DNA of 52,801 bases from Actinomycetota bacterium (GTDB lineage: Bacteria; Actinomycetota; UBA4738; HRBIN12), in the NCBI GenBank assembly GCA_035550775.1, contig DASZOO010000115.1, positions 1 through 52,801 on the forward strand, read 5' to 3'. The position numbers were made by a program, and so were the translations under genes. The stretch's first letter is position 1. Every line of letters begins with the position of its first letter. Below are positions 5,696-45,567 of this stretch, piece after piece. The notes under the pieces are model-generated. The model did no database searches and was not told the origin of the DNA. It saw only the letters and a program-made list of their open reading frames with translations.

Positions 5696-7044
5696 GCCGC
5701 GACCGGCTTCCCGGCCGCGACCCGGAGCAGTGCACGGATCGTCGAGGCCTCCGTCACCCGCACCGCGGCCGCGGCCGGCGACCGTCCGGGCGCATGGCGA
5801 GGCATGCGGACCGTGAGCGCACCGGGACGGGTCGCGAAGACGATCGGCGGTTCCAGCGTGAGCGCCTCGCCGTCGACCCCGACATCGACCGGACCGTCGG
5901 ACCGCACCTCGAACCGCTCCGACGTCCACTCGCGCCAGCCCTCGAATCGGTCGAGGCGACCGGCTGCCTGCAGCGAGACGAGCTTCTGCATGTCCGAGGC
6001 GCTCGAGACCGTGACGGTCGCGACGCCGAGCACGCCGTCGTCCAGGCGCTCTCGGGTCCCGCGACCCTTCGCCCGCTGCAGCTCGTACGGCCCGTTCGAG
6101 ACGAGGATCACCGCCGCGGTCGGCACCTCCTCGCCGTCGGGGCCGGTGAAGCGGAGGTCGAGCGGCCGGGCGTCGGGGCCGATCAGCTCCGGCAGCATCT
6201 CGAGCGACGTCTGCACCTTCGCGTCCCGGTACTCGGGCGACTGCACGATCCGCGCGTACAGCCCGAGCGTGGCGTTGTTCACGAAGACGCGGCCGTTCAC
6301 CTCCGCGAGGTCGATCGTGCGGTCGACGCCGTCGCTGTAGGCGTCGAGGGCACCGACGACGTCGTCGCGGTCGAGCCCGAGGTCGAGCGCGAAGTGGTTC
6401 CGCGTGCCGGCCGGGACCACGACGTGCGGGATGCCGTGCGCGCTCGCCACGGTGCCGACGAGCGCCTGGGAACCATCGCCGCCGGCCATGCCGATCACGT
6501 CGGCGCCGCGCTCCACCGCGTCCTCCGCGAGCTGCAGGAGGTCGTCACCCGGCGTGAGCACGATCGGCTCGATGCCCCGGTCCCGGCATTCGCGCTCGAG
6601 GTCGGACTTCACCGCCTTGCCGCCGCCGGACTTCGGGTTCATCAGCAGCACCGGGTGCCGTGGGCGGGGGGCGGGGGGCTCGTCGGCGAACGGGGTCGCG
6701 TCGTGCGGCTCGCGGAGCGCGAGGCCTGCTGCCCCGACCGAGACCGCCGCGACGGCCCCCACCGCCACCCACGGCCACAGGCGGGCGTCGCCCACGACGA
6801 GCACGGCGAGCACGATCGCGAGGCCGGCGAGGACCGTCGCGAGGGCGATCAGGCGCACCGAGCCCCGGTGCGACAGCGAGTACCAGGCGCCGCCGATCGC
6901 GATCGAGACGCCGACGCTCGCGATCACGATGTTCACGATGTTCGTGAGCGCGAGCGTGGCCACGACGACGACCGCGGCCACCAGGGTCACGATCGCGAGC
7001 AGCGCCGCCAGCCGTCGGATCAACGCCGGCCGATCGGTCGTCAT
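5692..7044 (-). CDS. Membrane-anchored diacylglycerol/lipid kinase (DAGK_cat, YegS/LCB5-like)
   Basis: N-terminal TM block, then VLLMNPKSGGGKA and AGGDGSQ kinase motifs. The ATG at 7044 overlaps the SulP stop (ATGA). Confidence 0.8.
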   Translation of the reverse strand: MTTDRPALIRRLAALLAIVTLVAAVVVVATLALTNIVNIVIASVGVSIAIGGAWYSLSHRGSVRLIALATVLAGLAIVLAVLVVGDARLWPWVAVGAVAAVSVGAAGLALREPHDATPFADEPPAPRPRHPVLLMNPKSGGGKAVKSDLERECRDRGIEPIVLTPGDDLLQLAEDAVERGADVIGMAGGDGSQALVGTVASAHGIPHVVVPAGTRNHFALDLGLDRDDVVGALDAYSDGVDRTIDLAEVNGRVFVNNATLGLYARIVQSPEYRDAKVQTSLEMLPELIGPDARPLDLRFTGPDGEEVPTAAVILVSNGPYELQRAKGRGTRERLDDGVLGVATVTVSSASDMQKLVSLQAAGRLDRFEGWREWTSERFEVRSDGPVDVGVDGEALTLEPPIVFATRPGALTVRMPRHAPGRSPAAAAVRVTEASTIRALLRVAAGKPVAA

Positions 7045-8798
7045 GGTCGGGTCCCTCCCTCCGTCACGCCCCACTCCTCGCCGAACTCCGCCCGATACGC
7101 CTCGATCGCCGCCTCGATCGTCGGGAAGAAGTGCCCGGGGTCGATCGTTCGCGTGAGCTCGTAGCGCTCGATCTTCGCGCGCACCCCGTCCTTGATCTCC
7201 GCGAACACGAGCGACACGTCACGAGCGTTCAACCAGACGTCCAGCTCCTCCAGCATGTCGGCGGCCGTCGTGTCGACATCGGTGATCGGTTCGGCCGCCA
7301 CCACGATCCATCGCAGCCCCGGGGTCGCGTTCACGAGCTCGGTGGTCTCTTCACGGAACGTGCGGCAGTTCGCGAAGATCAGCGGCGCGTCGAACCGGTA
7401 CATCACGAGACCGGGCAGCTGCTCCCCGTTCGGATACTGCCGCACGTCGTGGAACCCCGGCAGGCCCTCGACCCGGCCCAGACGGGTCTGGTACGGCCAC
7501 CATGCCCGCCGGAACACGTTGAGGATCGACAGGGCGACGGCGACGAGGATGCCCGGCAGCACGCCCAGCAGCGCGACGCCCAGGAAGGCGGCGATCGTGA
7601 GCAGGAACTCGGTTCGGCGTTGCTTCCACAACCTGATCGTCGCCGGGATGTCGGCGAGCGAGATAGACGCGGCGATCACCACGGCGGCCAGCGTCGGCTG
7701 GGGCAGGTTCCTCAGCAGGTCCGGGGCGACGAGCAGCAGCAGCAGGATCGCGAGCGCGCCGACGAGGCCCGTCACCTGGCTCTTCGCCCCGGCCTGCTCG
7801 GCCACGGCGGTGCGCGAACCGCTCGTGCTCACCGGGAAACCCTGGAAGAACCCGGCGGCGACGTTGGAGACGCCGATGCCGATCATCTCCTGGTTGCCGT
7901 GCACGTGCTGGCCCTGGCGAGCGGCGAACGCCGAGGCGGTCGAGATCGTGTCGGCCAACGCGACGAGGACGATGCCGAGCGCGCCGCCGAGCAGGAGCGG
8001 GAGATCCGACCACGAGACGTCCGGCATCGTGAGCGGAGGGAATCCACCCGGCAGCGGGCCCACCACCGACACGCCACGATCGACCAGATCGAACAGCTCG
8101 ACGGCGGCGATCGCGAGCACCACCGAGACCAGCACGGCCGGCACCTTCGGCAGCCGTCGCTGCAGGCCGAGGATGATCAGCAGGCTCGCGACGCCGATCG
8201 AGAGGGCTGCGACCACGGTCTCACCGTCGACCAGTCCGTCGACGAATGCGACCGCCTCGTCCACCAGTCCGTCCGCGTCGACGGAGTACCCGAACAGCTT
8301 CGGGAGCTGACCGACCAGGATCGTCAGGGCGAGTCCGTTCATGTATCCGATCTGCGTGGGCTTGGAGAGCAGGTCCGCGACGAAACCTAGCTTGGCGACA
8401 CCGGCGAGGATCATGACCGCCCCTGCCAAGAGCGCGAGCATCGACGAGAGCGCGATCGCTCGGACGGGATCGCCGCCGGCAACCATCAACGGTGCGATCG
8501 TGGCCGCGATCATGGGCCCGAGCGAAGAGTCGGGGCCGAGCACCAGGATGCGAGACGGGCCGAACACGGCGTAGCCGAGCAGGCACAGGATCGACGTGTA
8601 CAGGCCGGTGATCGCCGGGAGGCCGGCGAGCTCTGCATACGCCATGCCCTGCGGCACGAGGAGCGCGGTGAGCACCAGCCCGGCGACGACGTCCTTCGGG
8701 AGCCACTCCCGCCGGTATCCACGCAGGGCGGCGAGCCCGGGGATCGCCCCCGTTCCAGTGCGTTCCCCGCGAGCGAGCGCTGGAGCCTGCTGACCCAG
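7041..8798 (-). CDS. SulP-family anion (sulfate/bicarbonate) permease with C-terminal STAS domain
   Basis: N-terminal YRREWLPKDVVAGL...VPQGMAYAELAG, multiple TM segments, STAS-like C-terminus. Start is uncertain: there is no in-frame ATG/GTG/TTG between the pilT stop and the conserved N-terminus; a CTG lies at 8798. Confidence 0.8.
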   Translation of the reverse strand: MGQQAPALARGERTGTGAIPGLAALRGYRREWLPKDVVAGLVLTALLVPQGMAYAELAGLPAITGLYTSILCLLGYAVFGPSRILVLGPDSSLGPMIAATIAPLMVAGGDPVRAIALSSMLALLAGAVMILAGVAKLGFVADLLSKPTQIGYMNGLALTILVGQLPKLFGYSVDADGLVDEAVAFVDGLVDGETVVAALSIGVASLLIILGLQRRLPKVPAVLVSVVLAIAAVELFDLVDRGVSVVGPLPGGFPPLTMPDVSWSDLPLLLGGALGIVLVALADTISTASAFAARQGQHVHGNQEMIGIGVSNVAAGFFQGFPVSTSGSRTAVAEQAGAKSQVTGLVGALAILLLLLVAPDLLRNLPQPTLAAVVIAASISLADIPATIRLWKQRRTEFLLTIAAFLGVALLGVLPGILVAVALSILNVFRRAWWPYQTRLGRVEGLPGFHDVRQYPNGEQLPGLVMYRFDAPLIFANCRTFREETTELVNATPGLRWIVVAAEPITDVDTTAADMLEELDVWLNARDVSLVFAEIKDGVRAKIERYELTRTIDPGHFFPTIEAAIEAYRAEFGEEWGVTEGGTRP

Positions 8799-11466: not shown

Positions 11467-13524
11467 ATGACGATCTCCCGCGCGCTCGGCGCGCTGCTGA
11501 CGCTCGCGCTCGCCGCCACGACCGTTCTCGTCGCGGCTGCTCCGTCCGACGCCCAGGAACCGGCCGTCGCCCTGACGTTGCGAGCGCAGACACCCTTCAC
11601 CACGCTCGACGAACCTGACGTGACGATCACGTTCGAGGCGGAGAACCTCGGCGAGGAACCACTGGAGGATCTCTCCACCGGGTTCATCGTCGGCCCGCAG
11701 ATCACGTCTCGGGTCCAGTACGAGTCCTCGCTCGTCGACGGGCCGGCCGGGACGTTGATCTACGTCGATGCGTTCACGCAAACCGGAACCCTGGAACCCG
11801 GCGCCGCCCGGGAGTTCTCCGTCACCGTCGACCTCAGCGAGATCGACCTTGTGAGCGACGTCGATTCGCTCGTGTACCCGGCTCGTGTCGACCTGCGGAG
11901 CGCCGGGGTGCAGATCGCGACCCTCGACACGCCTCTCGTGCACCTCGTCCGAGACCCGGAGGTGCCGATCCGACTGGCGTGGTGGACGGAGTTCGACGCC
12001 CCGATCGCCCTGGACCCGCAGGGTCGGCTCGCCGACCCGTCGTTCGAAACCGCGATCGCGGACGGCGGCAGCCTTGCGCAACAGGTCGCGACGCTGCGGA
12101 CGGCCGTCGCGTCCGACGACGGCGTCACCGAGGTCGACCTCGTGGTCACTCCCGCGGTGGTCGACCAGATCGCGCGCATGGCCGACGGCTACGAACGGTC
12201 CTCGGGCGAGGCCGTAGCCGAGGACGAGGCGCCCGCCACCCACGCGGCCGCGCTCCTCACCGACCTGCGGGAGCTCGTCGCCGACCCCGACGTGCACCTG
12301 GTCGCCGCCCCGTTCTCCGGACCCCTGCTGCCGTCGCTGGCCTCCGGGGGCCTGGCCCGCGATCTCGCGCGCCAGCAGGCGCTCGGCGACGCGACGGTCG
12401 CGGAGCAGCTCGGCGTCAGGCCGTCCCCCGTGACCGCCCGCCCTCCTCAGGGAGCGCTCGACGAGCCGAGCCTGCAGTGGCTCGCCGACCGGGGCACGAC
12501 GACGCTGCTGTTGCAGGCGGACTCGGTCGACCGCCCGGCGCAGCCAAACGACTTCGCCCCACTCCCCGTCGCGACGGTGAGCACGTCGGACGGCAACAGC
12601 CTCGACGTGATCCTGCCCGATCCCGGCATCCAGGGGTTGTTGACGGATCCGACCTTGCTCGCCGACCCGGTCCGCACCGCTCAGGCCGTCTTGGGAGAGC
12701 TCGCCACGATCTGGCGCGAGCAGCCGGTGCCGGGGCTCCAAGCCGACGGCACCGAGACCGTTCGTGGGGTCGCCGTCGCGCTGCCGACGGCATTGCCTCC
12801 GGAAGCGTGGGCACCCCTCGTCCGTCGCCTCTCGCAGGCCCCCTTCCTGGTTCCGACCGAGGCGAACACGTTCGCCGAGCGGGTGAACCCCGGTCAGGGA
12901 AGCGCCGCGTTCACGCCGTCCACCGCCCGCTTCCCGCGCGACTACGTCGATGCGATCCGCGACCAACGCAGGAACGTGACCGCCTACCGGTCCATGCTGA
13001 CCGCGCCGAGCCCCCAGCCGGCGCGCCTCGATCGCAACCTGCTCTACGCCGAGGCCGGCCAGTACGTCGCCGAACCCGACGTGGGCCGTCAGTGGTACGA
13101 CCAGGTGAACGCGGTGACCGGGTCGGTCTTCAGCGGCGTGCTGCCCGACGTCGCACAGGAGTTCCTCCTCACGTCGGGAACGGGGACCATCCCCCTGCGG
13201 ATGGGTGACCCGGGACCCACGCCGCTCACGGTTCAGGTCGTGCTGCGATCGGCATCCTTCGAATTCCCGTCGGGCGCCGAGCGAACGATCACGCTCGAAG
13301 GGCCCGACGAGGTGGTGCCGGTCGATGTCGTCGCCAAGGCGAGCGGACCGCAGACGATCCGCGTCAAGACCAGGGCACCGTCGGGCCGTGACCTCGGGGA
13401 GGATCAGAACCTCGTCGTGCGAACGACCGCCGTGAACAGCGTCGCCCTGTGGATCACCGTGGGCGCCGGCGTGCTGCTGTTGTTGCTGTGGTCGAGGAGG
13501 TTGATCCGACGACCGACGCCGTGA
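11467..13524 (+). CDS. Secreted, C-terminally anchored protein of the murJ-neighbour family (DUF6049-like; Rv3909 position)
   Basis: Signal peptide (ALLTLALAATTVLVAAAPSDAQE), C-terminal TM segment plus RRLIRR. Conserved position directly upstream of murJ. Confidence 0.65.
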   Translation: MTISRALGALLTLALAATTVLVAAAPSDAQEPAVALTLRAQTPFTTLDEPDVTITFEAENLGEEPLEDLSTGFIVGPQITSRVQYESSLVDGPAGTLIYVDAFTQTGTLEPGAAREFSVTVDLSEIDLVSDVDSLVYPARVDLRSAGVQIATLDTPLVHLVRDPEVPIRLAWWTEFDAPIALDPQGRLADPSFETAIADGGSLAQQVATLRTAVASDDGVTEVDLVVTPAVVDQIARMADGYERSSGEAVAEDEAPATHAAALLTDLRELVADPDVHLVAAPFSGPLLPSLASGGLARDLARQQALGDATVAEQLGVRPSPVTARPPQGALDEPSLQWLADRGTTTLLLQADSVDRPAQPNDFAPLPVATVSTSDGNSLDVILPDPGIQGLLTDPTLLADPVRTAQAVLGELATIWREQPVPGLQADGTETVRGVAVALPTALPPEAWAPLVRRLSQAPFLVPTEANTFAERVNPGQGSAAFTPSTARFPRDYVDAIRDQRRNVTAYRSMLTAPSPQPARLDRNLLYAEAGQYVAEPDVGRQWYDQVNAVTGSVFSGVLPDVAQEFLLTSGTGTIPLRMGDPGPTPLTVQVVLRSASFEFPSGAERTITLEGPDEVVPVDVVAKASGPQTIRVKTRAPSGRDLGEDQNLVVRTTAVNSVALWITVGAGVLLLLLWSRRLIRRPTP

Positions 13525-17078: not shown

Positions 17079-18017
17079 ATGACCGACGAACGCAGCGTGA
17101 TCGTGATCGGATCGGGGCCGGCCGGCTACACGGCCGCCCTGTACGCGGCCCGCGCCAACCTCGAGCCGCTCGTGCTCAAGGGGCTCGATGCCGGTGGCCA
17201 GCTGATGCTCACGACCGACGTGGAGAATTACCCGGGGTTCCCCGACGGCCTGCTGGGGCCCGAGCTGATGGACCGCTTCGAGAAGCAGGCCGCACACTTC
17301 GGCGCGGAGATCCTGCCCGTGCACGTCACCGAGGTCGACCTCTCGAGCAGGCCGTTCCTGGTGAAGGCCGGGGATCAGGAGTGGCAAGCGCTGACCGTGA
17401 TCGTCGCGACGGGAGCGAGCGCCCGCTGGCTGGGCGTTCCCGGGGAGGAGAAGCTCCGAGGCCGCGGCGTGAGCGCCTGCGCCACCTGCGACGGCTTCTT
17501 CTTCCGCGATCGCGAGCTCGTGGTCGTGGGCGGCGGCGACTCGGCGATGGAAGAGGCCACGTTCCTCACGAAGTTCGCGTCGAAGGTCACGATCGTGCAC
17601 CGGCGCGACGAGTTCCGAGCGTCGAAGATCATGCAGGATCGGGCCCTCGCCAACCCGAAGATCGAGGTCGCCTGGAACACGACGGTGACCGAGATCCTGG
17701 GTAAGGATGCCGTCACCGGCGTTCGGCTGGCGGACTCCGTGACCGGCGAGGAACACGAGATGGCCACCGACGGGGTCTTCATGGCGATCGGGCACGACCC
17801 GAACACGTCGCTGTTCCGAGGGCAGCTCGAGCTCGACGACAACGGGTACGTGCTCGTGCAGGAACCCCGCACGTACACGAGCGTTCCCGGCGTCTACGCG
17901 GCCGGCGACGTGACCGACACAATCTACAAGCAGGCGGTCACCGCCGCCGGGCAGGGATGCAAGGCAGCCATCGACGCGGAGCGCTTCTTGGAGGACCAGG
18001 CGCACGCCGGGGCATGA
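17079..18017 (+). CDS. trxB: Thioredoxin-disulfide reductase
   Basis: [18 protein letters not shown] motif; redox-active CATCDG. Confidence 0.95.
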
Positions 18018-18103
18018 CCCCGGGAATCCCGGCACCCGCCCCAGCGTTGTGGAACAGACGGCCGGGGGCGCCGGCCGGCAACCCGACGAGGAGTACGACG
18101 ACG

Positions 18104-18430
18104 ATGGCGAACGTGAACACCGTGACCGATCAGGAGTTCCAGAGCTCCGTCCTGGACTCGCAGACCCCGGTCCTCGTGGACTTCTGGGCCGAATGGTGCG
18201 TGCCGTGCCACATGGTCTCCCCGGTGGTCGAGGAGATCGGCCAGGACAAGGGCGAGGCCCTGAAGGTCGTGAAGCTGAACATCGACGAGAACCCCCAGGC
18301 CACGCGCACCTACGGGGTGATGAGCATCCCGAGCCTGATCCTGTTCAAGGGCGGGCAAGAGGTCGCCCGCGTGATCGGCGCGAAGCCGAAGGACGCGATC
18401 CTCCGGGACATCGAACCGCACCTGGCCTGA
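18104..18430 (+). CDS. trxA: Thioredoxin (atypical WCVPC active site)
   Basis: VLVDFWAEWCVPCHM. 108 aa. GAGGAG Shine-Dalgarno about 10 nt upstream of the ATG at 18104. Confidence 0.95.
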   Translation: MANVNTVTDQEFQSSVLDSQTPVLVDFWAEWCVPCHMVSPVVEEIGQDKGEALKVVKLNIDENPQATRTYGVMSIPSLILFKGGQEVARVIGAKPKDAILRDIEPHLA

Positions 18431-39869: not shown

Positions 39870-40727
39870 GTGCCTTGGGCCGTCGGTACACTCCGCCGCA
39901 TGAGCGGACCCGCGTGGACGATGGCACACGAGGCGGCGACCGCAGCCGGCGTGGAGCTCCGCTCGCTGACGTCGCTCGAGGATGCCGACGCGATCCTGCG
40001 GGTGATGGTGGCGACGTGGAACGAGGAGATCCCACGGGAGACGCTCCGTGCGTTGTCCGGGTCGGGGAACGTCCCCTGGGGCGCCTTCGACGGTGACGAG
40101 CTGATCGGCTACGTGCTCGGCTGGGCCGCCATCTCCGACGACGACGGGCTGCACGAGCATTCGCACATGCTGGCCGTCCTTCCCGGGCGCCGGCACGCGG
40201 GTGTGGGCTACGCCCTCAAGCTGGCACAACGGGCGTCCTGTCTCGACCGGGACATCCACCTGGTTCGATGGACCTTCGATCCGCTCGTCGCTCGCAACGC
40301 CCACCTCAACATCAACAAGCTCGGCGCGACCTGCGACAGGTTCCACCGCGACTACTACGGCGAGATGCCCGATGCGATCAATGCCGGGGATCGCAGCGAC
40401 CGCCTCGTCGTGCGGTGGCTGCTCGACCCGGCGCCGACGGCTCCGACGATCCCCTTCGGCGCCCGGATCGTAGTCCGCAGCGCCGGCCCCGTCGATGCGC
40501 CCGAGCCGGAGGTGATCGACGAGTCGAACGGGACTGAGGTCGTTGCGGTGCAGGTGCCCCGAGACCATGCCGCCGTGCGGACGGCCGATCCGGGGCTCGC
40601 GGCCGCCTGGCGGGAAGCCGTCGGCTCGGTGCTCGAGGCTCAGGTTGCCGCGGGGCTCGGCGTCGTGGCATTCGATCCCGATCGAGCAGCGGGCCGCCCG
40701 ACCTACTACCTCGGGCCGCGGCCATGA
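39870..40727 (+). CDS. GNAT-family acyltransferase
   Basis: Acyl-CoA motif LPGRRHAGVGYALKLAQ. 4-nt overlap with the downstream enolase-superfamily gene. Start may be M11 at 39900. Confidence 0.7.
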   Translation: MPWAVGTLRRMSGPAWTMAHEAATAAGVELRSLTSLEDADAILRVMVATWNEEIPRETLRALSGSGNVPWGAFDGDELIGYVLGWAAISDDDGLHEHSHMLAVLPGRRHAGVGYALKLAQRASCLDRDIHLVRWTFDPLVARNAHLNINKLGATCDRFHRDYYGEMPDAINAGDRSDRLVVRWLLDPAPTAPTIPFGARIVVRSAGPVDAPEPEVIDESNGTEVVAVQVPRDHAAVRTADPGLAAAWREAVGSVLEAQVAAGLGVVAFDPDRAAGRPTYYLGPRP

Positions 40728-41833
40728 GCGTCGTTCGAACGCTCGAGCTCCGCCTGATCGGCTTGCCCCTCGTGCGGCCGTTCCGCACGAGCTTCGGCAC
40801 CTCGACGGAGAAGACGTGCGTGCTCGTGCGGCTCGTGTCCGATGCGGGCGAGGGATGGGCCGAGTGCGTGACGGAGGTCGAACCCAGCTTCAGCGAGGAG
40901 TTCAACGACGGTGCGTGGCTGGTGCTGCGCGATCACCTCGGCCCGGCGTTGCTACGCGCCGGCGACCTGGACATCGATGACCTCGAAGGGGTCTTCACAC
41001 ACGTGCGCGGCAATCCCATGGCGAAGGCGGCGATCGTCGACGCCTTCGTCGACGCCGAGCTCAGGGGTCGAGGTGAGCCGCTCGCGGACTGGCTCGGCGC
41101 GGACCGCGATCGGGTCCCGTGCGGGGTGTCGATCGGCATCACCGACACGACGGAGGCCCTGCTCGGACAGGTCGAGGGGTACCTGGAGGAGGGGTACCGG
41201 CGGATCAAGCTCAAGATCGAGCCGGGTCTCGACGTCGAGCGGGTGGCGGCGGTCCGATCCGCGCATCCGAGCATCGCGCTCAGCGTCGACGCCAACGCGG
41301 CGTACACGATCGACGACCTCGACGTGTTCCGAGCGCTCGACGGATACGACCTGTTGATGATCGAACAACCGCTCCACCATTCGGACCTGGTCCGGCACGC
41401 CGAGCTGCAGCGGGCGATCCGAAGCGACGTCTGCCTCGACGAGTCGATCCGCTCGGCGGCCGATGCCGCAGCCGCGTTGGAACTCGGCAGCTGCCGCATC
41501 GTGAACATCAAGCAGGGCCGCGTCGGCGGCATCCTCGAGGCTCGGCGAGTGCACGACGTGTGTCGCGCGGCCGGCGTGCCCGTCTGGTGCGGCGGCATGT
41601 TGGAGACGGGTATCGGCCGCGCCCAGAACCTGGCGTTGGCGGCCATGCCGGGGTTCACCCTTCCCGGCGACACGAGCGCGAGCGCACGCTATTTCCCCGA
41701 CGACATCACCGAGCCGTTCGTGATGGCGTCGGACGGCACGATGTCGGTGCCCGCGGGTGCCGGGATCGGCATCTCACCTCGTCCCGATCGCCTGGTGGAG
41801 ACGACGCTGAGAACCGAGACGATCTCACGATGA
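40724..41833 (+). CDS. Enolase-superfamily enzyme of the o-succinylbenzoate synthase / N-succinylamino-acid racemase subgroup
   Basis: KxK (RIKLKI), metal ligands in DANAAY / MIEQPL / LDESI, second Lys in NIKQGRVGG, and CGGMLETGIGRA. Confidence 0.85.
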   Translation: MSVVRTLELRLIGLPLVRPFRTSFGTSTEKTCVLVRLVSDAGEGWAECVTEVEPSFSEEFNDGAWLVLRDHLGPALLRAGDLDIDDLEGVFTHVRGNPMAKAAIVDAFVDAELRGRGEPLADWLGADRDRVPCGVSIGITDTTEALLGQVEGYLEEGYRRIKLKIEPGLDVERVAAVRSAHPSIALSVDANAAYTIDDLDVFRALDGYDLLMIEQPLHHSDLVRHAELQRAIRSDVCLDESIRSAADAAAALELGSCRIVNIKQGRVGGILEARRVHDVCRAAGVPVWCGGMLETGIGRAQNLALAAMPGFTLPGDTSASARYFPDDITEPFVMASDGTMSVPAGAGIGISPRPDRLVETTLRTETISR

Positions 41834-41931
41834 GCGGATCCCGCCTCCCGGTCCGCGTTCGGTCCGGAAAGAGTGACAAGAACCCCGGCTCCGATTTGAC
41901 GGCAGGCAGGCGAACGCCGTATGGTTCGTCA

Positions 41932-41971
41932 TGAGAAACCGCTGGGGCCCCCGGGTTCCGGCGGTTTCTCA
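41932..41971. terminator. Long hairpin (11-bp perfect arms TGAGAAACCGC / GCGGTTTCTCA) in the 279-nt gap before the mau-like operon
   Basis: Read directly. The GC-rich loop can pair further. About 100 nt downstream of the OSBS/NSAR stop. Confidence 0.4.
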
Positions 41972-42112: not shown

Positions 42113-42673
42113 ATGAAGAAGCGAGTCGTCCAAGCGGGGGAGTTCGAGGTCGTCGACGCCGACGGCCGCGTGCGTGTGCGCATCGGGCTGTCCAACGACG
42201 AAGATCCCTTCCTCTCGCTGCTCGCCCCCGATGGCCAGGTCCGCATGCGATTCGGCCTGTCGGGCGACGGGGCCGCAGGGCTTGCCGTCGGCGACGCCAA
42301 CGGCAAGGTGCGTGCCACGGTGGGACTGTCCAGCGACGGCAGCGCGAGCCTTGCGTTCGGCGACAAGAACGGGCGGATCCGCGCGAAGTTCGGCCTGGCC
42401 CCCGAGGCGTCCCCGACGATGGGCATGCACGTGAGTGACGACGAGCTGTCGCAGGTCTACTCGCTCGCCGAACAGGGTTCACCGACATTGGGTCTCTACG
42501 ATCACGCGGGCAAGGTCCGGGTTCGGCTCGGCCTCGCGGCCGAAGGCTCCCCGGTGCTCCGCCTGCTCGACCGCGACGGGGAGCTCCGAGCGATCGTGGG
42601 GCTCGCGGATGACGGCTCGCCGTTCGTCCGATTCCTCGACGAGGCCAAGCAACCGACCTGGACCATGCGATGA
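42113..42673 (+). CDS. Leaderless, Cys-free protein made of about 7.5 tandem 23-aa repeats
   Basis: Repeat pattern x-L-x-L-x-D-x-x-G-x-x-R-x-x-x-G-L-x-x-D-G-S-P, e.g. VLRLLDRDGELRAIVGLADDGSP. ATGA overlap with the next gene. Confidence 0.7.
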   Translation: MKKRVVQAGEFEVVDADGRVRVRIGLSNDEDPFLSLLAPDGQVRMRFGLSGDGAAGLAVGDANGKVRATVGLSSDGSASLAFGDKNGRIRAKFGLAPEASPTMGMHVSDDELSQVYSLAEQGSPTLGLYDHAGKVRVRLGLAAEGSPVLRLLDRDGELRAIVGLADDGSPFVRFLDEAKQPTWTMR

Positions 42674-43179
42674 CCGGGTGGTGGGCCCTGGCCTTCGTCG
42701 TGCTCTGGCTGCTCGTGGTCGTGCTCTGCATCGTCGTGATCGCGCTCGCCCGGCAGGTGGGCACCCTGCATCTGCGTCTCGGCCCCCGCGGCGCGCTCGA
42801 GATCGACGACGAGGGCCCGGCGATCGGCGAACCGCTGCCGACCGTCACCGCGGCCACGCCCGGCGGACATCCGATCACGATCGGGGGAGCGGGCCGGCCG
42901 CGCCTGGTGCTGTTCGCCTCGGAGACCTGTGCGATCTGCCGCGAGGTGTCCCCCGGCATCCCCGCAGCGGCGGCCGCCGGCCGGCTCGACCCGATCGTGG
43001 TGCACGACTCGGCGGCCGAGCGCCGGCTCGACGTGCCGGGTACGCCGTTCGTGGTCGTGTTGGACGAGCACGGTATCGTGCGCGCCAAAGGCACCGTGAA
43101 CAACCTGGAACAGGTCGAGGGATTGGTGGACACCGCGAACCGCCGGATCACGGAGGAACATCGACAGTGGGCAAGCTGA
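42670..43179 (+). CDS. Membrane-anchored thioredoxin-fold protein, MauD-like (TlpA/ResA superfamily)
   Basis: N-terminal TM segment WWALAFVVLWLLVVVLCIVVIAL; FASETCAICREV CxxC motif; GTPFVVVLDEHG. Confidence 0.75.
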   Translation: MTGWWALAFVVLWLLVVVLCIVVIALARQVGTLHLRLGPRGALEIDDEGPAIGEPLPTVTAATPGGHPITIGGAGRPRLVLFASETCAICREVSPGIPAAAAAGRLDPIVVHDSAAERRLDVPGTPFVVVLDEHGIVRAKGTVNNLEQVEGLVDTANRRITEEHRQWAS

Positions 43180-43703
43180 CCCCGATCGAGCGAGCGGAAC
43201 GCTCTCTCGCCTCTCGCACCAGTCGCCGGAGCTTCCTGGGGCGGGTCGGCAAGGGCGTCGTCGCGCTCGCAGGCGGAGGACTCGTCGCCACCGCGATCGC
43301 TCCCGACCGCGCGCAGGCGTATCACATCTGCGGCCACACGTATACGACCGGCTCATGCCCGCATCCTTACTCCCCGTTGTCTCGGACCGATCGCTACGGC
43401 TATCCGATGCACCCTCAGTACGGGCACCCCGTCGACGACGCGGGGAAGAAGTACGTGGATCCCAAGTCTCAGAAGCGGCGGAAGACCTGTGAGCAGATGG
43501 TGCCCGGGGAGTATCCGTTCACGGGGAGACCGCGTTACGGCGGTGGATGGACCCGCTGCTGCTACGGAAGGCTGCGGCACATCCAGGATTGCTGCTCCAC
43601 CTCCGACATCCGTATCAACGGGGACTACGCCGTTCGTGGCTACTGTCCGCGCGGGCTCAAGGTGTTCTGCATCACCTACCGGGAGCTCAACCGGCGGTGC
43701 TGA
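43167..43703 (+). CDS. Tat-leader, 10-Cys small protein resembling the methylamine dehydrogenase light chain (MauA-like)
   Basis: GTG preceded by GGAGG 10 nt upstream. Leader ASRTSRRSFLGRVGKGVVALAGG...APDRAQA. Mature part has GGGWTRCCY, IQDCC and GYCPRG motifs. Confidence 0.7.
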   Translation: MGKLTPIERAERSLASRTSRRSFLGRVGKGVVALAGGGLVATAIAPDRAQAYHICGHTYTTGSCPHPYSPLSRTDRYGYPMHPQYGHPVDDAGKKYVDPKSQKRRKTCEQMVPGEYPFTGRPRYGGGWTRCCYGRLRHIQDCCSTSDIRINGDYAVRGYCPRGLKVFCITYRELNRRC

Positions 43704-43781
43704 CCGACGCGCTGGGCGGCGACGCGGTCGCGGGAGCGCTGGTGCTGGCCCTCGTGGCCGCGTCGGCCGTCGCGGGGTGGT

Positions 43782-43807
43782 CAGCCCTCTACGGGCCCTG
43801 AGGGCTG
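43782..43807 (+). promoter_or_regulatory. Hairpin CAGCCCTC-N10-GAGGGCTG whose 3' arm contains the Shine-Dalgarno sequence of the next gene
   Basis: Read directly. GAGGG (43800-43804) lies 6 nt before the ATG at 43811. Confidence 0.4.
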
Positions 43808-43810
43808 TCG

Positions 43811-44935
43811 ATGGTGGAGACCATCACTCCCGTCGTGTACGGGGGCCGAGCCCGATGGACCGCGGCGTTCGCGCTGCACGTCGCCGGCGCCACAGCGAGC
43901 GCTGCCATGTTCGGGTTGATCCTGGGCGGCGTCGGGTCGTTGCTCGGCGCTCCGTGGGGGCGCGCGGGAGCGATCGCCCTCGCCGCCGCCGCGGCGGTCT
44001 ATGCCCTCGGGGAGCTCCCCCGGATCACGGCCACGGTCCCGCAACTCCGTCGCCAGGTGCCCGACTGGTGGCGGGAGTTCTTCTCGTGGCCGGTCGCCGC
44101 TACGCTCTACGGCGCCGGGCTCGGCATCGGCTTCTTCACCTATCTCTCGCACGGAACGCTGGTCGTCGTGGCGCTCGCTGCGCTCGCGTCGGGAGACCCT
44201 CTCGTCGGCGCGATCGTCGTCGCGCCCTTCGGGCTGGCTCGAGGGCTCTCGGCCGCTCGGGCCTCCGGGGTTCGAACGCAGGAGGCATCACAGCGGTTGG
44301 TCGATCACCTCGCAGAGACGCCGGAGCGAGGCCGGTCGATCGCCAACGGCTCGGCGCTGGTCGTGGTGGGCGGCCTCTCGCTCGTGACGGCGGCCGGAGC
44401 GGCGGATGGTTGGGGCGCGTTCGCGACGGCAGCGCTCGCGCTGGCGTTCGCCTGGGCGGCCGCGTCGAAGGTGGCTGACGTGCGTGGATGGCGCCGCACC
44501 CTCGCCGCGCACGGGCTGCCCCGAGGCGTCGGGGCGGCGGCCGTGTTCGGCGTGCCCACCGCCGAGGCGTTGGTGCCGGTGCTCGCGGTGTCGGGGTGGC
44601 CTCGAGCGGCCGCGATCTGGGCGCTCGTGCTCCTGCTCGTCTTCACGGTCGAGGCCCTGCGGGCCTGGCGACGGTTCGGACCCCACGTGCCGTGCGGCTG
44701 CTTCGGCGGCCGCGAGGCCGTCTCGCCGGCGGCCCTGCTGCTCCGCAACGCCGCGCTCGCCGGCCTCGCCGCCACCGTAGCCCTGCGGCCGGCACCCCCG
44801 CCGGCGTTCTCCTGGCCCGGGTGGCCCGCCCCGGGGGAGGTCTTGCCGATGGTGTTGGCGATCGTGGGAGTGGGCGTGGCAGGCTTCACCGCGTGGACGG
44901 CGACGAAGTGGCTCGGCGGCGGGGCGCGCCCGTGA
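43811..44935 (+). CDS. Polytopic membrane protein: N-terminal Cys-free multi-TM domain fused to a MauE/DoxX-like C-terminal half
   Basis: C-terminal half has FGVPTAEALVPVL... and VPCGCFGG. The N-terminal half has QLRRQVPDWW and GAGLGIGFFTY motifs. Confidence 0.65.
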   Translation: MVETITPVVYGGRARWTAAFALHVAGATASAAMFGLILGGVGSLLGAPWGRAGAIALAAAAAVYALGELPRITATVPQLRRQVPDWWREFFSWPVAATLYGAGLGIGFFTYLSHGTLVVVALAALASGDPLVGAIVVAPFGLARGLSAARASGVRTQEASQRLVDHLAETPERGRSIANGSALVVVGGLSLVTAAGAADGWGAFATAALALAFAWAAASKVADVRGWRRTLAAHGLPRGVGAAAVFGVPTAEALVPVLAVSGWPRAAAIWALVLLLVFTVEALRAWRRFGPHVPCGCFGGREAVSPAALLLRNAALAGLAATVALRPAPPPAFSWPGWPAPGEVLPMVLAIVGVGVAGFTAWTATKWLGGGARP

Positions 44936-45567
44936 TGATGCCGTGGATCCGACGCGCCGTATGGGCGATGCGGCCCGTGACACCCTTCCTCGCTGCCGGG
45001 CTGGCCGTCCTCGTGGCCCTGGTCGCGATCGCGTCGCCGAGGTTCCATACGGACATGAACGATCCCGACGATGCGAAGGGTCCCCTCGACGTCCGCCGGA
45101 TCCGCCTCGACCACGAGGGCCGCACCGAGATCACCGCGATCACCTTCTCGGACTGGACGGCGAAGTCGATGTGGGACCGTGGGAACGCCTACGTGCTGCT
45201 CGACACCGTCGGGCGCGAGCCCGCCGACTATTTCATCGTCGTGCGCAGCACGGGCACGACGTTGCAGGCTTCCTTGTGGCGAGATCGGCGGGCGAAGCGT
45301 GACGCGTTCCTGCGAAACGTCAAGGTGCGCCGGAAGACGTTGAACAGCCTGACCGTCAGGGTGCCGGTGAAGTCACTGGAGTTCGGGCGCCAGCGAGACG
45401 TCTACTACTGGTGGGTGGTGACCAGCTTCACGGGCAGCATCTGCCGGCGAACGTGCCTCGACCGGGCCCCCAACAGCGGGACGGTCGAACAGTGGCGGCC
45501 GGGCCACTCGCCGACGCCGACCACGACCACGTCGACGTCCACCGGCACGAGGACCGCCGGCCCGTAG
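44935..45567 (+). CDS. Hypothetical exported or anchored protein with Thr-rich C-terminal tail
   Basis: GTGATGATG start region overlaps the upstream TGA. Hydrophobic N-terminus FLAAGLAVLVALVAIA; DDAKGPLDVRRIRL; tail PTPTTTTSTSTGT. Confidence 0.6.
   Translation: MMPWIRRAVWAMRPVTPFLAAGLAVLVALVAIASPRFHTDMNDPDDAKGPLDVRRIRLDHEGRTEITAITFSDWTAKSMWDRGNAYVLLDTVGREPADYFIVVRSTGTTLQASLWRDRRAKRDAFLRNVKVRRKTLNSLTVRVPVKSLEFGRQRDVYYWWVVTSFTGSICRRTCLDRAPNSGTVEQWRPGHSPTPTTTTSTSTGTRTAGP

Follow-up and report, generated by a model that had tools for sequence, protein, structure and literature searches.

A MauF-MauE fusion with a probable selenocysteine codon in a mau-like operon of uncultured Actinomycetota

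We describe a mau-like operon of five open reading frames (ORF1 to ORF5) in a 52,801-nt stretch of DNA, hereafter the window, from an Actinomycetota bacterium (UBA4738; HRBIN12; assembly GCA_035550775.1, contig DASZOO010000115.1). By homology, the operon encodes a MauD-family thioredoxin-fold protein (ORF2), a small exported cysteine-rich protein (ORF3) and a polytopic membrane protein in which MauF is fused to MauE (ORF4). The conserved cysteine of MauF corresponds in ORF4 to an in-frame TGA, which we read as a probable selenocysteine (Sec) codon and which every public annotation has taken for a stop. To our knowledge, MauF is needed for the biogenesis of methylamine dehydrogenase (MADH) and its role has never been defined.

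The operon

The features of the operon discussed in this work are the following, with coordinates given on the window.

ORF1, 42113-42673, plus strand: 186-aa leaderless beta-hairpin repeat protein, clade-specific
ORF2, 42670-43179, plus strand: MauD-family thioredoxin fold with N-terminal membrane anchor and CAIC active site
ORF3, 43167-43703, plus strand: 178-aa precursor, probable client; leader residues 1-51 (43167-43319), mature domain of 127 aa
ORF4 as re-annotated here, 43697-44935, plus strand: 412-aa MauF-MauE fusion membrane protein, with a GTG start overlapping the ORF3 stop (GTGCTGA)
ORF4 as publicly annotated, 43811-44935, plus strand: 374 aa, ATG start
In-frame TGA, 43799-43801, plus strand: probable selenocysteine codon, residue 35 of ORF4, motif YGP-U-GLSM
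Hairpin 1, 43810-43825, plus strand: GAUGGU-GGAG-ACCAUC, starting 8 nt after the UGA
Hairpin 2, 43827-43845, plus strand: CUCCCGU-CGUGU-ACGGGGG, the most similar to a selenocysteine insertion sequence (SECIS); loop from 32 nt after the UGA, with conserved GU
MauF-homologous domain of ORF4, 43697-44362, plus strand: approximately residues 1-222; its only Cys/Sec residue is the Sec position
MauE domain of ORF4, 44420-44785, plus strand: PF07291; CGC at 44693-44701 (VPCGCFGG)
ORF5, 44932-45567, plus strand: about 210 aa (start at 44932/44935), overlapping the ORF4 stop; clade-specific

The five ORFs are colinear on the plus strand and tightly packed, with an ATGA overlap between ORF1 and ORF2 (42670-42673), a 13-nt overlap between ORF2 and ORF3 (43167-43179) and a GTGATG stop/start overlap between ORF4 and ORF5 (44932-44937); no methylotrophy genes are in view. 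A first-pass annotation, made from the sequence alone, had already recorded these frames and junctions (the last of them at 44935), the CAIC of ORF2, the twin-arginine leader and 10 Cys of ORF3, the VPCGCFGG of ORF4 and the absence of CxxCH from all five ORFs, and each of these observations holds.

Data and scope of the comparisons

Orthologous loci were retrieved from GTDB species representatives with a profile of ORF3. The sample comprises 80 loci, and at least 578 matches were confirmed among the representatives, all of them in metagenome-assembled genomes of uncultured Actinomycetota. The neighborhood analysis that the first-pass annotation had proposed finds the five genes colinear in 80 of the 80 loci retrieved, wherever the contig is long enough, with identities of 67-90% for ORF3, 58-94% for ORF1, 56-88% for ORF2, 46-77% for ORF4 and 36-68% for ORF5. 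Such conservation exceeds by far what chance would give. The region around the TGA was compared in 78 orthologous loci, representing 72 unique sequences. More distant relatives, approximately 40% identical and designated here as subfamily 2, were obtained in a metagenome scan that yielded 80 loci, 67 of them covering the TGA region. Local absence of canonical components was assessed by tblastn of the Paracoccus denitrificans Mau proteins (cluster mauR-FBEDA-amicyanin-JG) against the window and 164 related loci (1.43 Mb); these neighborhood tests reach about 7 kb around each of the 164 loci, not whole genomes. RNA hairpins were evaluated with the criteria for bacterial SECIS elements (bSECIS) given in PMC13188914, which include a minimum spacing of 16 nt.

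Family assignments of ORF2 and ORF4

The resemblance of ORF2 to MauD, proposed in the first-pass annotation, is borne out by a match to the MauD model TIGR02661 (E 2.3e-24, 85.9 bits, below the equivalog cutoff of 188.6) and by a full-length alignment with P. denitrificans MauD (BLASTP, 32% identity over residues 1-169, E 2e-28). The two proteins have in common the N-terminal anchor with its RQVG-LH motif and the CxxC, and both the anchor motif and the CxxC are kept in 78 orthologues. Among PDB sequences, ORF2 matches the thiol-disulfide isomerase 3ia1 (E 2e-5). By these matches ORF2 is a member of the MauD family, not an equivalog.

The C-terminal half of ORF4 scores 75.7 bits against the MauE model PF07291 (gathering score 27; E 5e-21), and its CGCFGG is invariant in 44 homologues; in MauE, a DsbB-like oxidase, the CXC-F-G motif forms the active site (bioRxiv 10.64898/2026.03.05.709764). 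Judged by this match, the C-terminal half is MauE, as the first-pass annotation had supposed for a polytopic protein of MauE/DoxX type; what it had missed is that the N-terminal half is MauF and that a TGA occupies the place of the MauF cysteine. No Pfam or NCBIfam model matches this N-terminal half, nor ORF1, ORF3 or ORF5, and NCBIfam release 20 has no model for the N-terminal half family. MauF itself has no Pfam or NCBIfam model, which is why this half of ORF4 remained silent in earlier family searches. The relationship emerges when an alignment of 121 N-terminal halves from both subfamilies is compared with P. denitrificans MauF (hhalign probability 99.4%, E 4.8e-21, 194 columns). The features considered for MauF were the conserved WSPCG cysteine and the PQ-RRQVP...LYG-LG motif, together with homology, which the N-terminal half of ORF4 displays; the P. 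denitrificans sequence contains LLSTWSPCGYSSIS ... PYPQRRAQVPHDARQRFPKWVIGGLYGLSLGLDYLTYV. In the hhalign alignment, the TGA/Cys column of ORF4 falls on the P. denitrificans MauF cysteine in TWSPCGYSS. Since the N-terminal half is homologous to MauF and the TGA lies on the MauF cysteine, ORF4 is by homology a MauF-MauE fusion and very probably a selenoprotein.

The tblastn searches point in the same direction. Across the window and the 164 loci, MauD matches 133 loci, MauF 114 (best E 2e-15) and MauE 34, and no match was found there for MauB, MauG, MauJ or amicyanin. The first-pass annotation had listed MauB, MauG and amicyanin as missing, and in this neighborhood they are. It had also suggested three profile searches, of which those for MauE (PF07291) and, below its equivalog cutoff, MauD (TIGR02661) returned matches, and that for the MADH light chain (Me-amine-dh_L, PF02975) returned none for ORF3 at E<=0.1.

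An in-frame TGA in ORF4

The interval between ORF3 and the annotated start of ORF4 (43704-43810) had been taken in the first-pass annotation for a 107-nt intergenic gap carrying a hairpin that sequesters the Shine-Dalgarno sequence. Neither part of this reading survives comparison. The hairpin, which is likely CAGCCCTC/GAGGGCTG (43782-89/43800-07), is intact in 1 of the 72 orthologous sequences, and the conserved hairpins lie downstream of the TGA. The lead to the coding nature of the gap came from frame-shifted database chimeras of subfamily 2, which read TWSPCGFSMVETIGP 3′ of the ORF3-like gene and thereby resemble the GWSALYGP-TGA-GLSMVETITP of the window.

Positions 43697-43810 are in frame with ORF4 and encode a hydrophobic helix, the first transmembrane helix of the protein, the sole interruption being the TGA at 43799-43801. 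This extension is conserved at the amino-acid level in the 78 loci, and upstream of the TGA the base composition is of coding type (GC1/2/3 of 0.86/0.60/0.94). Over the ten codons upstream of the TGA, entropy by codon position in the 72 unique orthologues averages 0.45/0.33/1.09; over GGN CTN TCG, the three codons that separate the TGA from the ATG, it averages 0.14/0.00/0.95. Variation is thus three-periodic on both sides of the TGA, and we conclude that both flanks are translated in the ORF4 frame. The TGA itself is invariant, occurring at the same position in 78 of 78 orthologous loci within the context (V/I)AG(W/I/L/V)S-x-L-x-GP-TGA-G(L/F/M)SMVETI. As a control, we tabulated stop codons free of an overlapping start in the same genomes, obtaining 64 TGA, 16 TAG and 1 TAA for ORF3, 36, 23 and 3 for ORF5, and 56, 11 and 7 for the MR_MLE-family gene located upstream of the operon.

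Subfamily 2 supplies the cysteine counterpart. In 61 of the 67 loci covering the region, the codon is TGC or TGT within an uninterrupted ORF (WSPCG(F/L)SM), and the remaining 6 have TGA (WSP-TGA-SLSM). The Met of the SM motif is internal and conserved in the Cys forms (CGFSM), and therefore the ATG at 43811 is not a genuine start. Public records consistently use it: among the best 120 database entries for ORF4, 120 of 120 are 372-389 aa long and are called from the first ATG after the TGA. A codon-composition scan identified the TGA at 43799 as the only credible in-frame TGA of the window, and no other recurrent in-frame TGA in any of the loci. A single further candidate in the window passed the codon-composition filter, a TGA at 18132 on the minus strand; it is antisense to a thioredoxin gene (17957-18430) and is very likely an artefact.

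Taken together, this evidence makes us highly confident that the TGA at 43799 is translated, and we consider it very likely that residue 35 is selenocysteine.

More generally, public protein sets are rich in frame-shifted and read-through chimeras of ORF1, ORF2, ORF3 and ORF4 (P0128, P0142, P0144, P0275, P0284 and others), and gene calling is unreliable in this high-GC region of overlapping frames.

RNA hairpins downstream of the TGA

Among the 72 unique sequences, synonymous variation collapses at codons +3 to +8 after the TGA, where TCG, ACC and ATC are invariant and GTG and GAG show entropies (H) of 0.52 and 0.31. The CCC at +10 and the GGG at +14 are also nearly invariant (H 0.11 each), against H 1.6-1.9 for other nearby Gly codons. 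From these positions RNAalifold recovers the two hairpins listed above. In hairpin 1 a 6-bp stem closes a GGAG loop, with a spacing of 14 nt and a minimum free energy (MFE) of -8.5 kcal/mol; five of its pairs are present in 72 of 72 sequences and the sixth in 67 of 72. Hairpin 2 combines a stem of 7 bp with the loop CGUGU, at a spacing of 32 nt and with an MFE of -10.2 kcal/mol, and one of its pairs (29-47) undergoes an exchange between CG and GC (50 versus 18 sequences). Hairpin 2 fits the bSECIS criteria (PMC13188914). A hairpin satisfying the strict criteria occurs in 52 of 72 Sec forms versus 10 of 56 Cys forms. The six subfamily-2 loci with TGA carry a different hairpin, GGCAC-CGUGC-GUGCC, 20 nt downstream of the UGA; its CGUG(Y) loop is similar.

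Cysteines and architectures of the MauF family

In the extended ORF4, the only cysteines are C333 and C335, which form the CGC of MauE, and the MauF domain contains none besides the Sec position. A second Cys, 23 residues after the WSPCG cysteine, is present in 85% of the Cys-form MauF homologues of subfamily 2 (loci L085-L164), in the column of Phe58 of ORF4 in extended numbering. It is absent from the Sec forms and from Paracoccus MauF, which suggests that the Sec forms do without a resolving Cys.

Fusion patterns vary across the family, with MauE fused to MauD (L111:6683-7582), MauF alone (about 225 aa) and MauF fused to MauE, as in the window. A fourth architecture joins a Cys-form MauF to an extra transmembrane (TM) helix and a C-terminal domain of about 290 aa (L111:8129-9685, metagenome contig JADMIO011281655.1) that has no Pfam, NCBIfam or PDB match. 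Throughout these rearrangements the core of MauE, MauD, an ORF3-like protein and MauF is kept in the approximately 40%-identical subfamily 2, with other fusions.

ORF3, the probable client

ORF3 directly follows mauD, as mauA does in canonical clusters, and begins with a leader of MauA type. Compared alone, the ORF3 and MauA leaders align with a probability of 97% (hhalign, E 1e-10) over 31 columns that include the n-region, and cleavage after AQA and before Y would release the predicted 127-aa mature protein. All detectable similarity to MauA beyond a short motif resides in this leader. The model TIGR02659 matches leader residues 7-35 only (E 0.008, 16 bits against a cutoff of 197), the MauA tblastn yields one marginal match, confined to the leader, and only the leader aligns with a profile of 7-9 MauA sequences. 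For the mature domain against MauA, hhalign returns a probability of 0.1-0.3%, and 0.7% for whole ORF3 against a single MauA sequence. No PDB sequence is found with ORF3 by phmmer (single sequence) or hmmsearch (profile), and Foldseek finds no match with E<1 in the PDB for its AlphaFold2 (AF2) model, whose mean predicted local distance difference test score (pLDDT) is 62.

The light chains that carry tryptophan tryptophylquinone (TTQ) have two Trp and 12 Cys (6 disulfides); ORF3 has one Trp and 10 Cys, and F167-C168 stands where a motif alignment places W108-C109 of MauA. The local likeness concerns a predicted beta-hairpin, GGGW128TRCC..RLRHIQD141CC, comparable to SW57VASC...YRD76CC in MauA and closer to GGAWYVCC...RYRDCC in Thermomicrobium roseum (hhalign 19%, E 1e-3). 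We regard ORF3 as a positional analogue of MauA with a homologous leader and a mature domain that is not detectably a TTQ light chain. The MauA-like character attributed to ORF3 in the first-pass annotation thus holds for its leader and its position after mauD; the mature domain shows none of it in PF02975, PDB, MauA-profile or Foldseek comparisons and has the one Trp.

The T. roseum plasmid NC_011961.1 (L168) carries at least two divergent MauA-like genes, at about 7000-7444 and 11720-12172, one of them unannotated and each beside hypothetical proteins of about 400 aa. Their products (WP_143714793.1 and the unannotated paralogue) share with ORF3 the GG-x-W-x2-CC...DCC hairpin, the FCGH motif and the C-terminal Cys. 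They differ in keeping the second Trp (SWC/NWC), in having more Cys, in matching MauA directly by tblastn and in adjoining the possible heavy chains of about 400 aa. With their GGAWxxCC...RYxDCC, FCGH and C-terminal Cys, the T. roseum small subunits look intermediate between canonical MauA and ORF3.

The ORF3 family counts 631 database homologues, the best 120 of which are at least 66% identical (range 66-90%); in a library clustered at 50% identity it forms few distinct clusters, with many fragments or frame-shifted chimeras. The ten Cys, W128, H53, H57, H82, H138, R130, D141 and RINGD are invariant, and H66 is present in at least 90% (55 and 142 family members). Of the five genes, ORF3 shows the strongest conservation across the 80 loci.

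ORF1, ORF5 and the genomic setting

The repeat protein recorded for the first gene in the first-pass annotation, leaderless and of 186 aa, is confirmed by AlphaFold: the AF2 model of ORF1 (pLDDT 88) consists of 16 beta-strands arranged in consecutive hairpins of about 23 aa each. Foldseek relates it to single-layer beta-sheets (engineered OspA) and MORN-type repeats (TbMORN1), a fold on which we rejected the idea that ORF1 might stand in for the MauB propeller. Distant relatives of ORF1 carry an N-terminal membrane anchor, and detectable database homologues number 33, versus 631 for ORF3. ORF5 begins with a membrane anchor or signal, continues with a beta-rich domain in which two Cys and a D-x2-D-x2-G-x-LD motif are conserved, and ends in a Thr/Pro-rich tail; no PDB sequence matches it. 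Neither ORF1 nor ORF5 was detected in subfamily-2 loci, and hhalign shows no relation of either to the extra C-terminal domain of subfamily-2 MauF. We regard ORF1 and ORF5 as clade-specific, translationally coupled accessories outside the conserved core.

The contig has a GC content of 70% and an actinobacterial gene setting close to the origin, as the first-pass annotation had recognized. Upstream of the operon lie parB/parA, yidC, dnaA (28223), dnaN, recF, gyrB, gyrA, tRNA-Ile, a GNAT gene and an MR_MLE-family gene; a beta-lactamase-like gene and then sulfatases follow the five ORFs. Elsewhere in the lineage the same block is found downstream of gyrA and DUF3566. The GNAT and MR_MLE genes (39870-41833; same place in L001-L084), an acetyltransferase and an enolase-superfamily racemase/epimerase-like gene, are joined by an ATGA overlap and precede the operon in essentially all related genomes, in some of which a DUF3352 gene is inserted between the pair and ORF1. 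Between the MR_MLE gene and ORF1 lie 280 nt that contain a promoter-like TTGACG-18-TATGGT (41896-41925), directly followed by a perfect 10-bp inverted repeat, GAGAAACCGC/GCGGTTTCTC (41933-41970), which could serve to terminate the upstream gene or as an element of the 5′ untranslated region.

Discussion

We consider it likely that the operon as a whole, including Sec in MauF, constitutes a dedicated extracytoplasmic disulfide-maturation module together with its client; for the dedicated MauF/E/D-client system as such, our confidence is strong. In this respect the conclusion of the first-pass annotation, which pointed to an uncharacterised exported, disulfide-matured small-protein system and not to a classical amine dehydrogenase, stands. 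The module would correspond to the accessory trio of MADH biogenesis, present as MauD (ORF2) and the MauF-MauE fusion (ORF4), with the enzyme itself missing. In E. coli, MauE proteins can take over from DsbB; their CXC faces the periplasm, and quinone binding is predicted for them. The MADH light chain needs both MauD and MauE in order to mature (bioRxiv 10.64898/2026.03.05.709764).

In the mechanism that we favor, ORF3 would be exported by the twin-arginine translocation (Tat) pathway via its long MauA-type leader and matured to the 127-aa protein with 10 Cys. Through its CGC, the MauE domain would act as a DsbB-like, quinone-coupled generator of disulfides. By analogy with MADH, it would re-oxidise MauD and pass electrons on to quinone, and MauD would in turn oxidise and/or isomerise the disulfides of exported ORF3, transferring or shuffling them. 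The MauF domain may supply the single essential redox residue, the Cys of WSPCG, which here would be a selenocysteine inserted at UGA 43799 with the aid of the downstream hairpin or hairpins. Because the MauF domain contains no other Cys, the exchange partner of the selenol would have to be MauD, the client or the CGC of the MauE domain in the same protein. Conservation of the leader between MauA and ORF3, while their mature domains differ, suggests that the leader may be the recognition handle for the MauF/E/D machinery.

A crude positive-inside count assigns both the MauF-MauE linker and the R-rich loop PQLRRQVPDWWREFF to the cytoplasm, and GP-U-G to a re-entrant segment or to the part of TM1 close to its cytoplasmic end. 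On this placement, MauF could just as plausibly reduce (isomerise) disulfides, in the manner of CcdA/DsbD, as oxidise them. The window also encodes thioredoxin reductase and thioredoxin (trxB-trxA, 17079-18430) about 25 kb upstream of the operon, in the usual actinobacterial origin-region order; their products could be cytoplasmic electron donors if MauF acts as a reducing relay.

Several observations weigh against this interpretation. ARAGORN finds no tRNA-Sec in the window or in the 1.43 Mb of loci, and the window contains no selA, selB or selD. Rfam, run on 43600-44000, returns chance-level matches only and none to SECIS. Hairpin 1 satisfies the bSECIS criteria except for its spacing, which at 14 nt is just under the minimum, and the near-invariance of the stems leaves almost no covariation, the lone CG-GC exchange being perhaps a single event. 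The TGA forms part of a UGAGG and the ATG follows 8 nt later, so that a stop followed by a Shine-Dalgarno sequence and a restart is formally possible. If Sec indeed lies closer to the cytoplasmic side than does the CGC of MauE in the periplasm, it would fit poorly with a simple direct exchange. The AF2 model of ORF3 is mediocre, and both the order of the relay and the role of ORF3 as probable client are read from context only.

The first alternative, which we judge quite unlikely, concerns the nature of ORF3, and is compatible with Sec in MauF. ORF3 would be a genuine small subunit of a quinoprotein, with a cofactor like TTQ or cysteine tryptophylquinone built on W128, and its partner and cofactor enzyme (MauG, or of LodB/QhpG type) would lie elsewhere as part of a dispersed amine dehydrogenase. 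Its MauA-type leader and position after mauD would be expected on this account, as would the GGGW-x2-CC...DCC of the predicted hairpin, which recalls W57...D76-C77-C78 of MauA and the T. roseum proteins; the standing of ORF3 as the most conserved gene of the cluster also befits an enzyme subunit rather than a toxin. The mature domain, however, has no profile or fold similarity to TTQ light chains, its one invariant Trp is accompanied by Phe167 at the place of MauA W108 and by 10 Cys, not 12, and no MauB, MauG, amicyanin or flavoprotein occurs within about 7 kb in the 164 loci.

It is likewise improbable, in our view, that MauF-MauE and MauD form a general disulfide pathway substituting for DsbB/DsbA, with ORF3, ORF1 and ORF5 as mere syntenic neighbors in an origin-proximal block. 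MauE is reported to be a generalist oxidase with a far wider spread than MauA (bioRxiv 10.64898/2026.03.05.709764), and synteny in the lineage extends over the entire region and takes in the GNAT and MR_MLE genes upstream, so that by itself it is weak evidence of function. Against a general role, ORF3-like genes remain between mauD and mauF in subfamily 2, in different genomic surroundings; start/stop overlaps flank ORF3 on both sides; the MauA-type leader is conserved; and MauF is otherwise known only from mauA-containing clusters.

We hold it equally improbable that the TGA is a true stop, which would leave a separate 34-aa TM peptide (43697-43801) followed by a MauF-MauE restarting at ATG 43811 from an SD-like GAGG, in effect a split MauF minus its Cys. 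The geometry UGAGG-N7-AUG is good for reinitiation, TGA is the commonest stop in these genomes and every public annotation uses the ATG. The three codons between TGA and ATG nevertheless vary only at third positions or conservatively (GGN; CTN/TTG/TTC/ATG; TCG), which is unexpected in an untranslated spacer, and the Met is internal in the Cys forms (CGFSM). In 78 loci the codon is never TAG or TAA, whereas unconstrained stops vary by 20-40%. Termination would also delete the one residue conserved across all MauF while its flanks stay strongly constrained, and a second, independent TGA group exists inside the Cys subfamily.

Least credible is a read-through of the TGA that does not involve Sec, through hairpin-stimulated near-cognate decoding (Trp, Cys, Arg) or local recoding and perhaps with a truncated product: the evidence for translation across the TGA applies equally to it, downstream hairpins can stimulate read-through and the database protein P0142, itself a frame-shifted chimera, has W at the TGA position. 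Against it, homologues carry Cys in the aligned column, in the classic Sec/Cys pairing, and both the position of the hairpin and its conserved-GU loop agree with the model of bacterial SECIS elements. The hairpins of the two TGA lineages differ although their loops, CGUG(U/C), are alike, and so inefficient a process would serve an essential active-site residue poorly.

The comparison with known systems clarifies what is particular to the operon, which we interpret as a maturation module with its client. It resembles the mauFBEDACJG cluster (P. denitrificans plasmid NC_008688.1; Methylobacterium extorquens) in its MauF, MauE and MauD homologues and in the small Cys-rich Tat precursor after mauD. 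It differs in lacking MauB, MauG, MauJ and amicyanin, in a small mature protein that is unrelated by profile and fold, in the fusion of MauF to MauE, in a MauF Cys encoded by TGA, and in its chromosomal, origin-proximal location in an Actinomycetota host. With the MauE oxidase of Gonzalez et al. (bioRxiv 10.64898/2026.03.05.709764) it shares the CGCFGG motif and the pairing or fusion with a thioredoxin-fold partner, as in the fused MauE-MauD of subfamily 2; that MauE is treated as a generalist, whereas the MauE of the window lies in a tight operon with a specific candidate client.

Among selenoproteins, the closest parallels are thiol oxidoreductases (DsbA-like, DsbG-like, thiol:disulfide interchange, and the rhodanese/DsbD fusion-like TsoB; Table 1 of PMC13188914), which likewise present a single UGA at a redox Cys, Cys homologues, a hairpin directly downstream and truncated annotation; ORF4 differs from them in its polytopic membrane MauF fold and in a GP-U-G motif without a nearby resolving Cys. 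The CcdA/DsbD relays similarly place their redox residue in a Pro/Gly-rich helix break (SPCG), and the second Cys of most Cys-form MauF lies about 23 residues on, in the next helix. They differ in that no sequence similarity was detected, Pfam DsbD models miss the protein, and canonical MauF and the Sec forms have one redox residue. Actinobacteria are known to use Sec, and there are documented cases in which annotation cuts a selenoprotein gene in two at its UGA (PMC13449736). The mycobacterial formate dehydrogenase genes fdhA/fdoG provide an example (PMC13449736), with a SECIS directly 3′ of the UGA; they belong to another protein family, and the Sec machinery has been demonstrated in those genomes.

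A review of May 2026 lists 119 prokaryotic selenoprotein families, with no MauF or MauE among them (PMC13188914), and the terms MauE, methylamine and DoxX are absent from both that review and the BSepDB paper. The MauE preprint (bioRxiv 10.64898/2026.03.05.709764) makes no mention of MauF, MauF-MauE fusions, selenocysteine or Actinomycetota. Papers that mention MauF are very few, and a literature search on MauE or MauF together with selenocysteine found nothing relevant. What is new is hence a predicted selenoprotein family of a familiar type, in which a redox Cys is replaced by Sec, within a novel form of the Mau accessory system whose client is not MADH. A bolder extension, which we regard as rather unlikely, would make MauF the catalytic thiol/selenol carrier of a leader-guided machine, here upgraded to Sec, and ORF3 the founder of a new family of crosslinked or cofactor-bearing exported proteins that belongs to the core genome of a large uncultured actinobacterial clade. 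Such proteins would have five disulfides plus either a His/Cys metal site or a modified Trp128, and neither MauG nor a heavy chain would be needed to make them.

Conclusions

The analysis of this operon adds a predicted family of MauF-type membrane selenoproteins, mis-annotated as truncated in 120 of the 120 public records examined. The Sec/Cys pair pinpoints the probable functional residue of MauF, and the fusion of MauF to MauE argues that both act in one thiol-disulfide relay. The Mau accessory trio would serve a non-TTQ client in at least 578 species-level genomes, which supports a more general, leader-linked maturation of Cys-rich exported proteins. The conservation of ORF3 above that of its neighbors, across an uncultured soil lineage, marks what is probably an important extracytoplasmic function.

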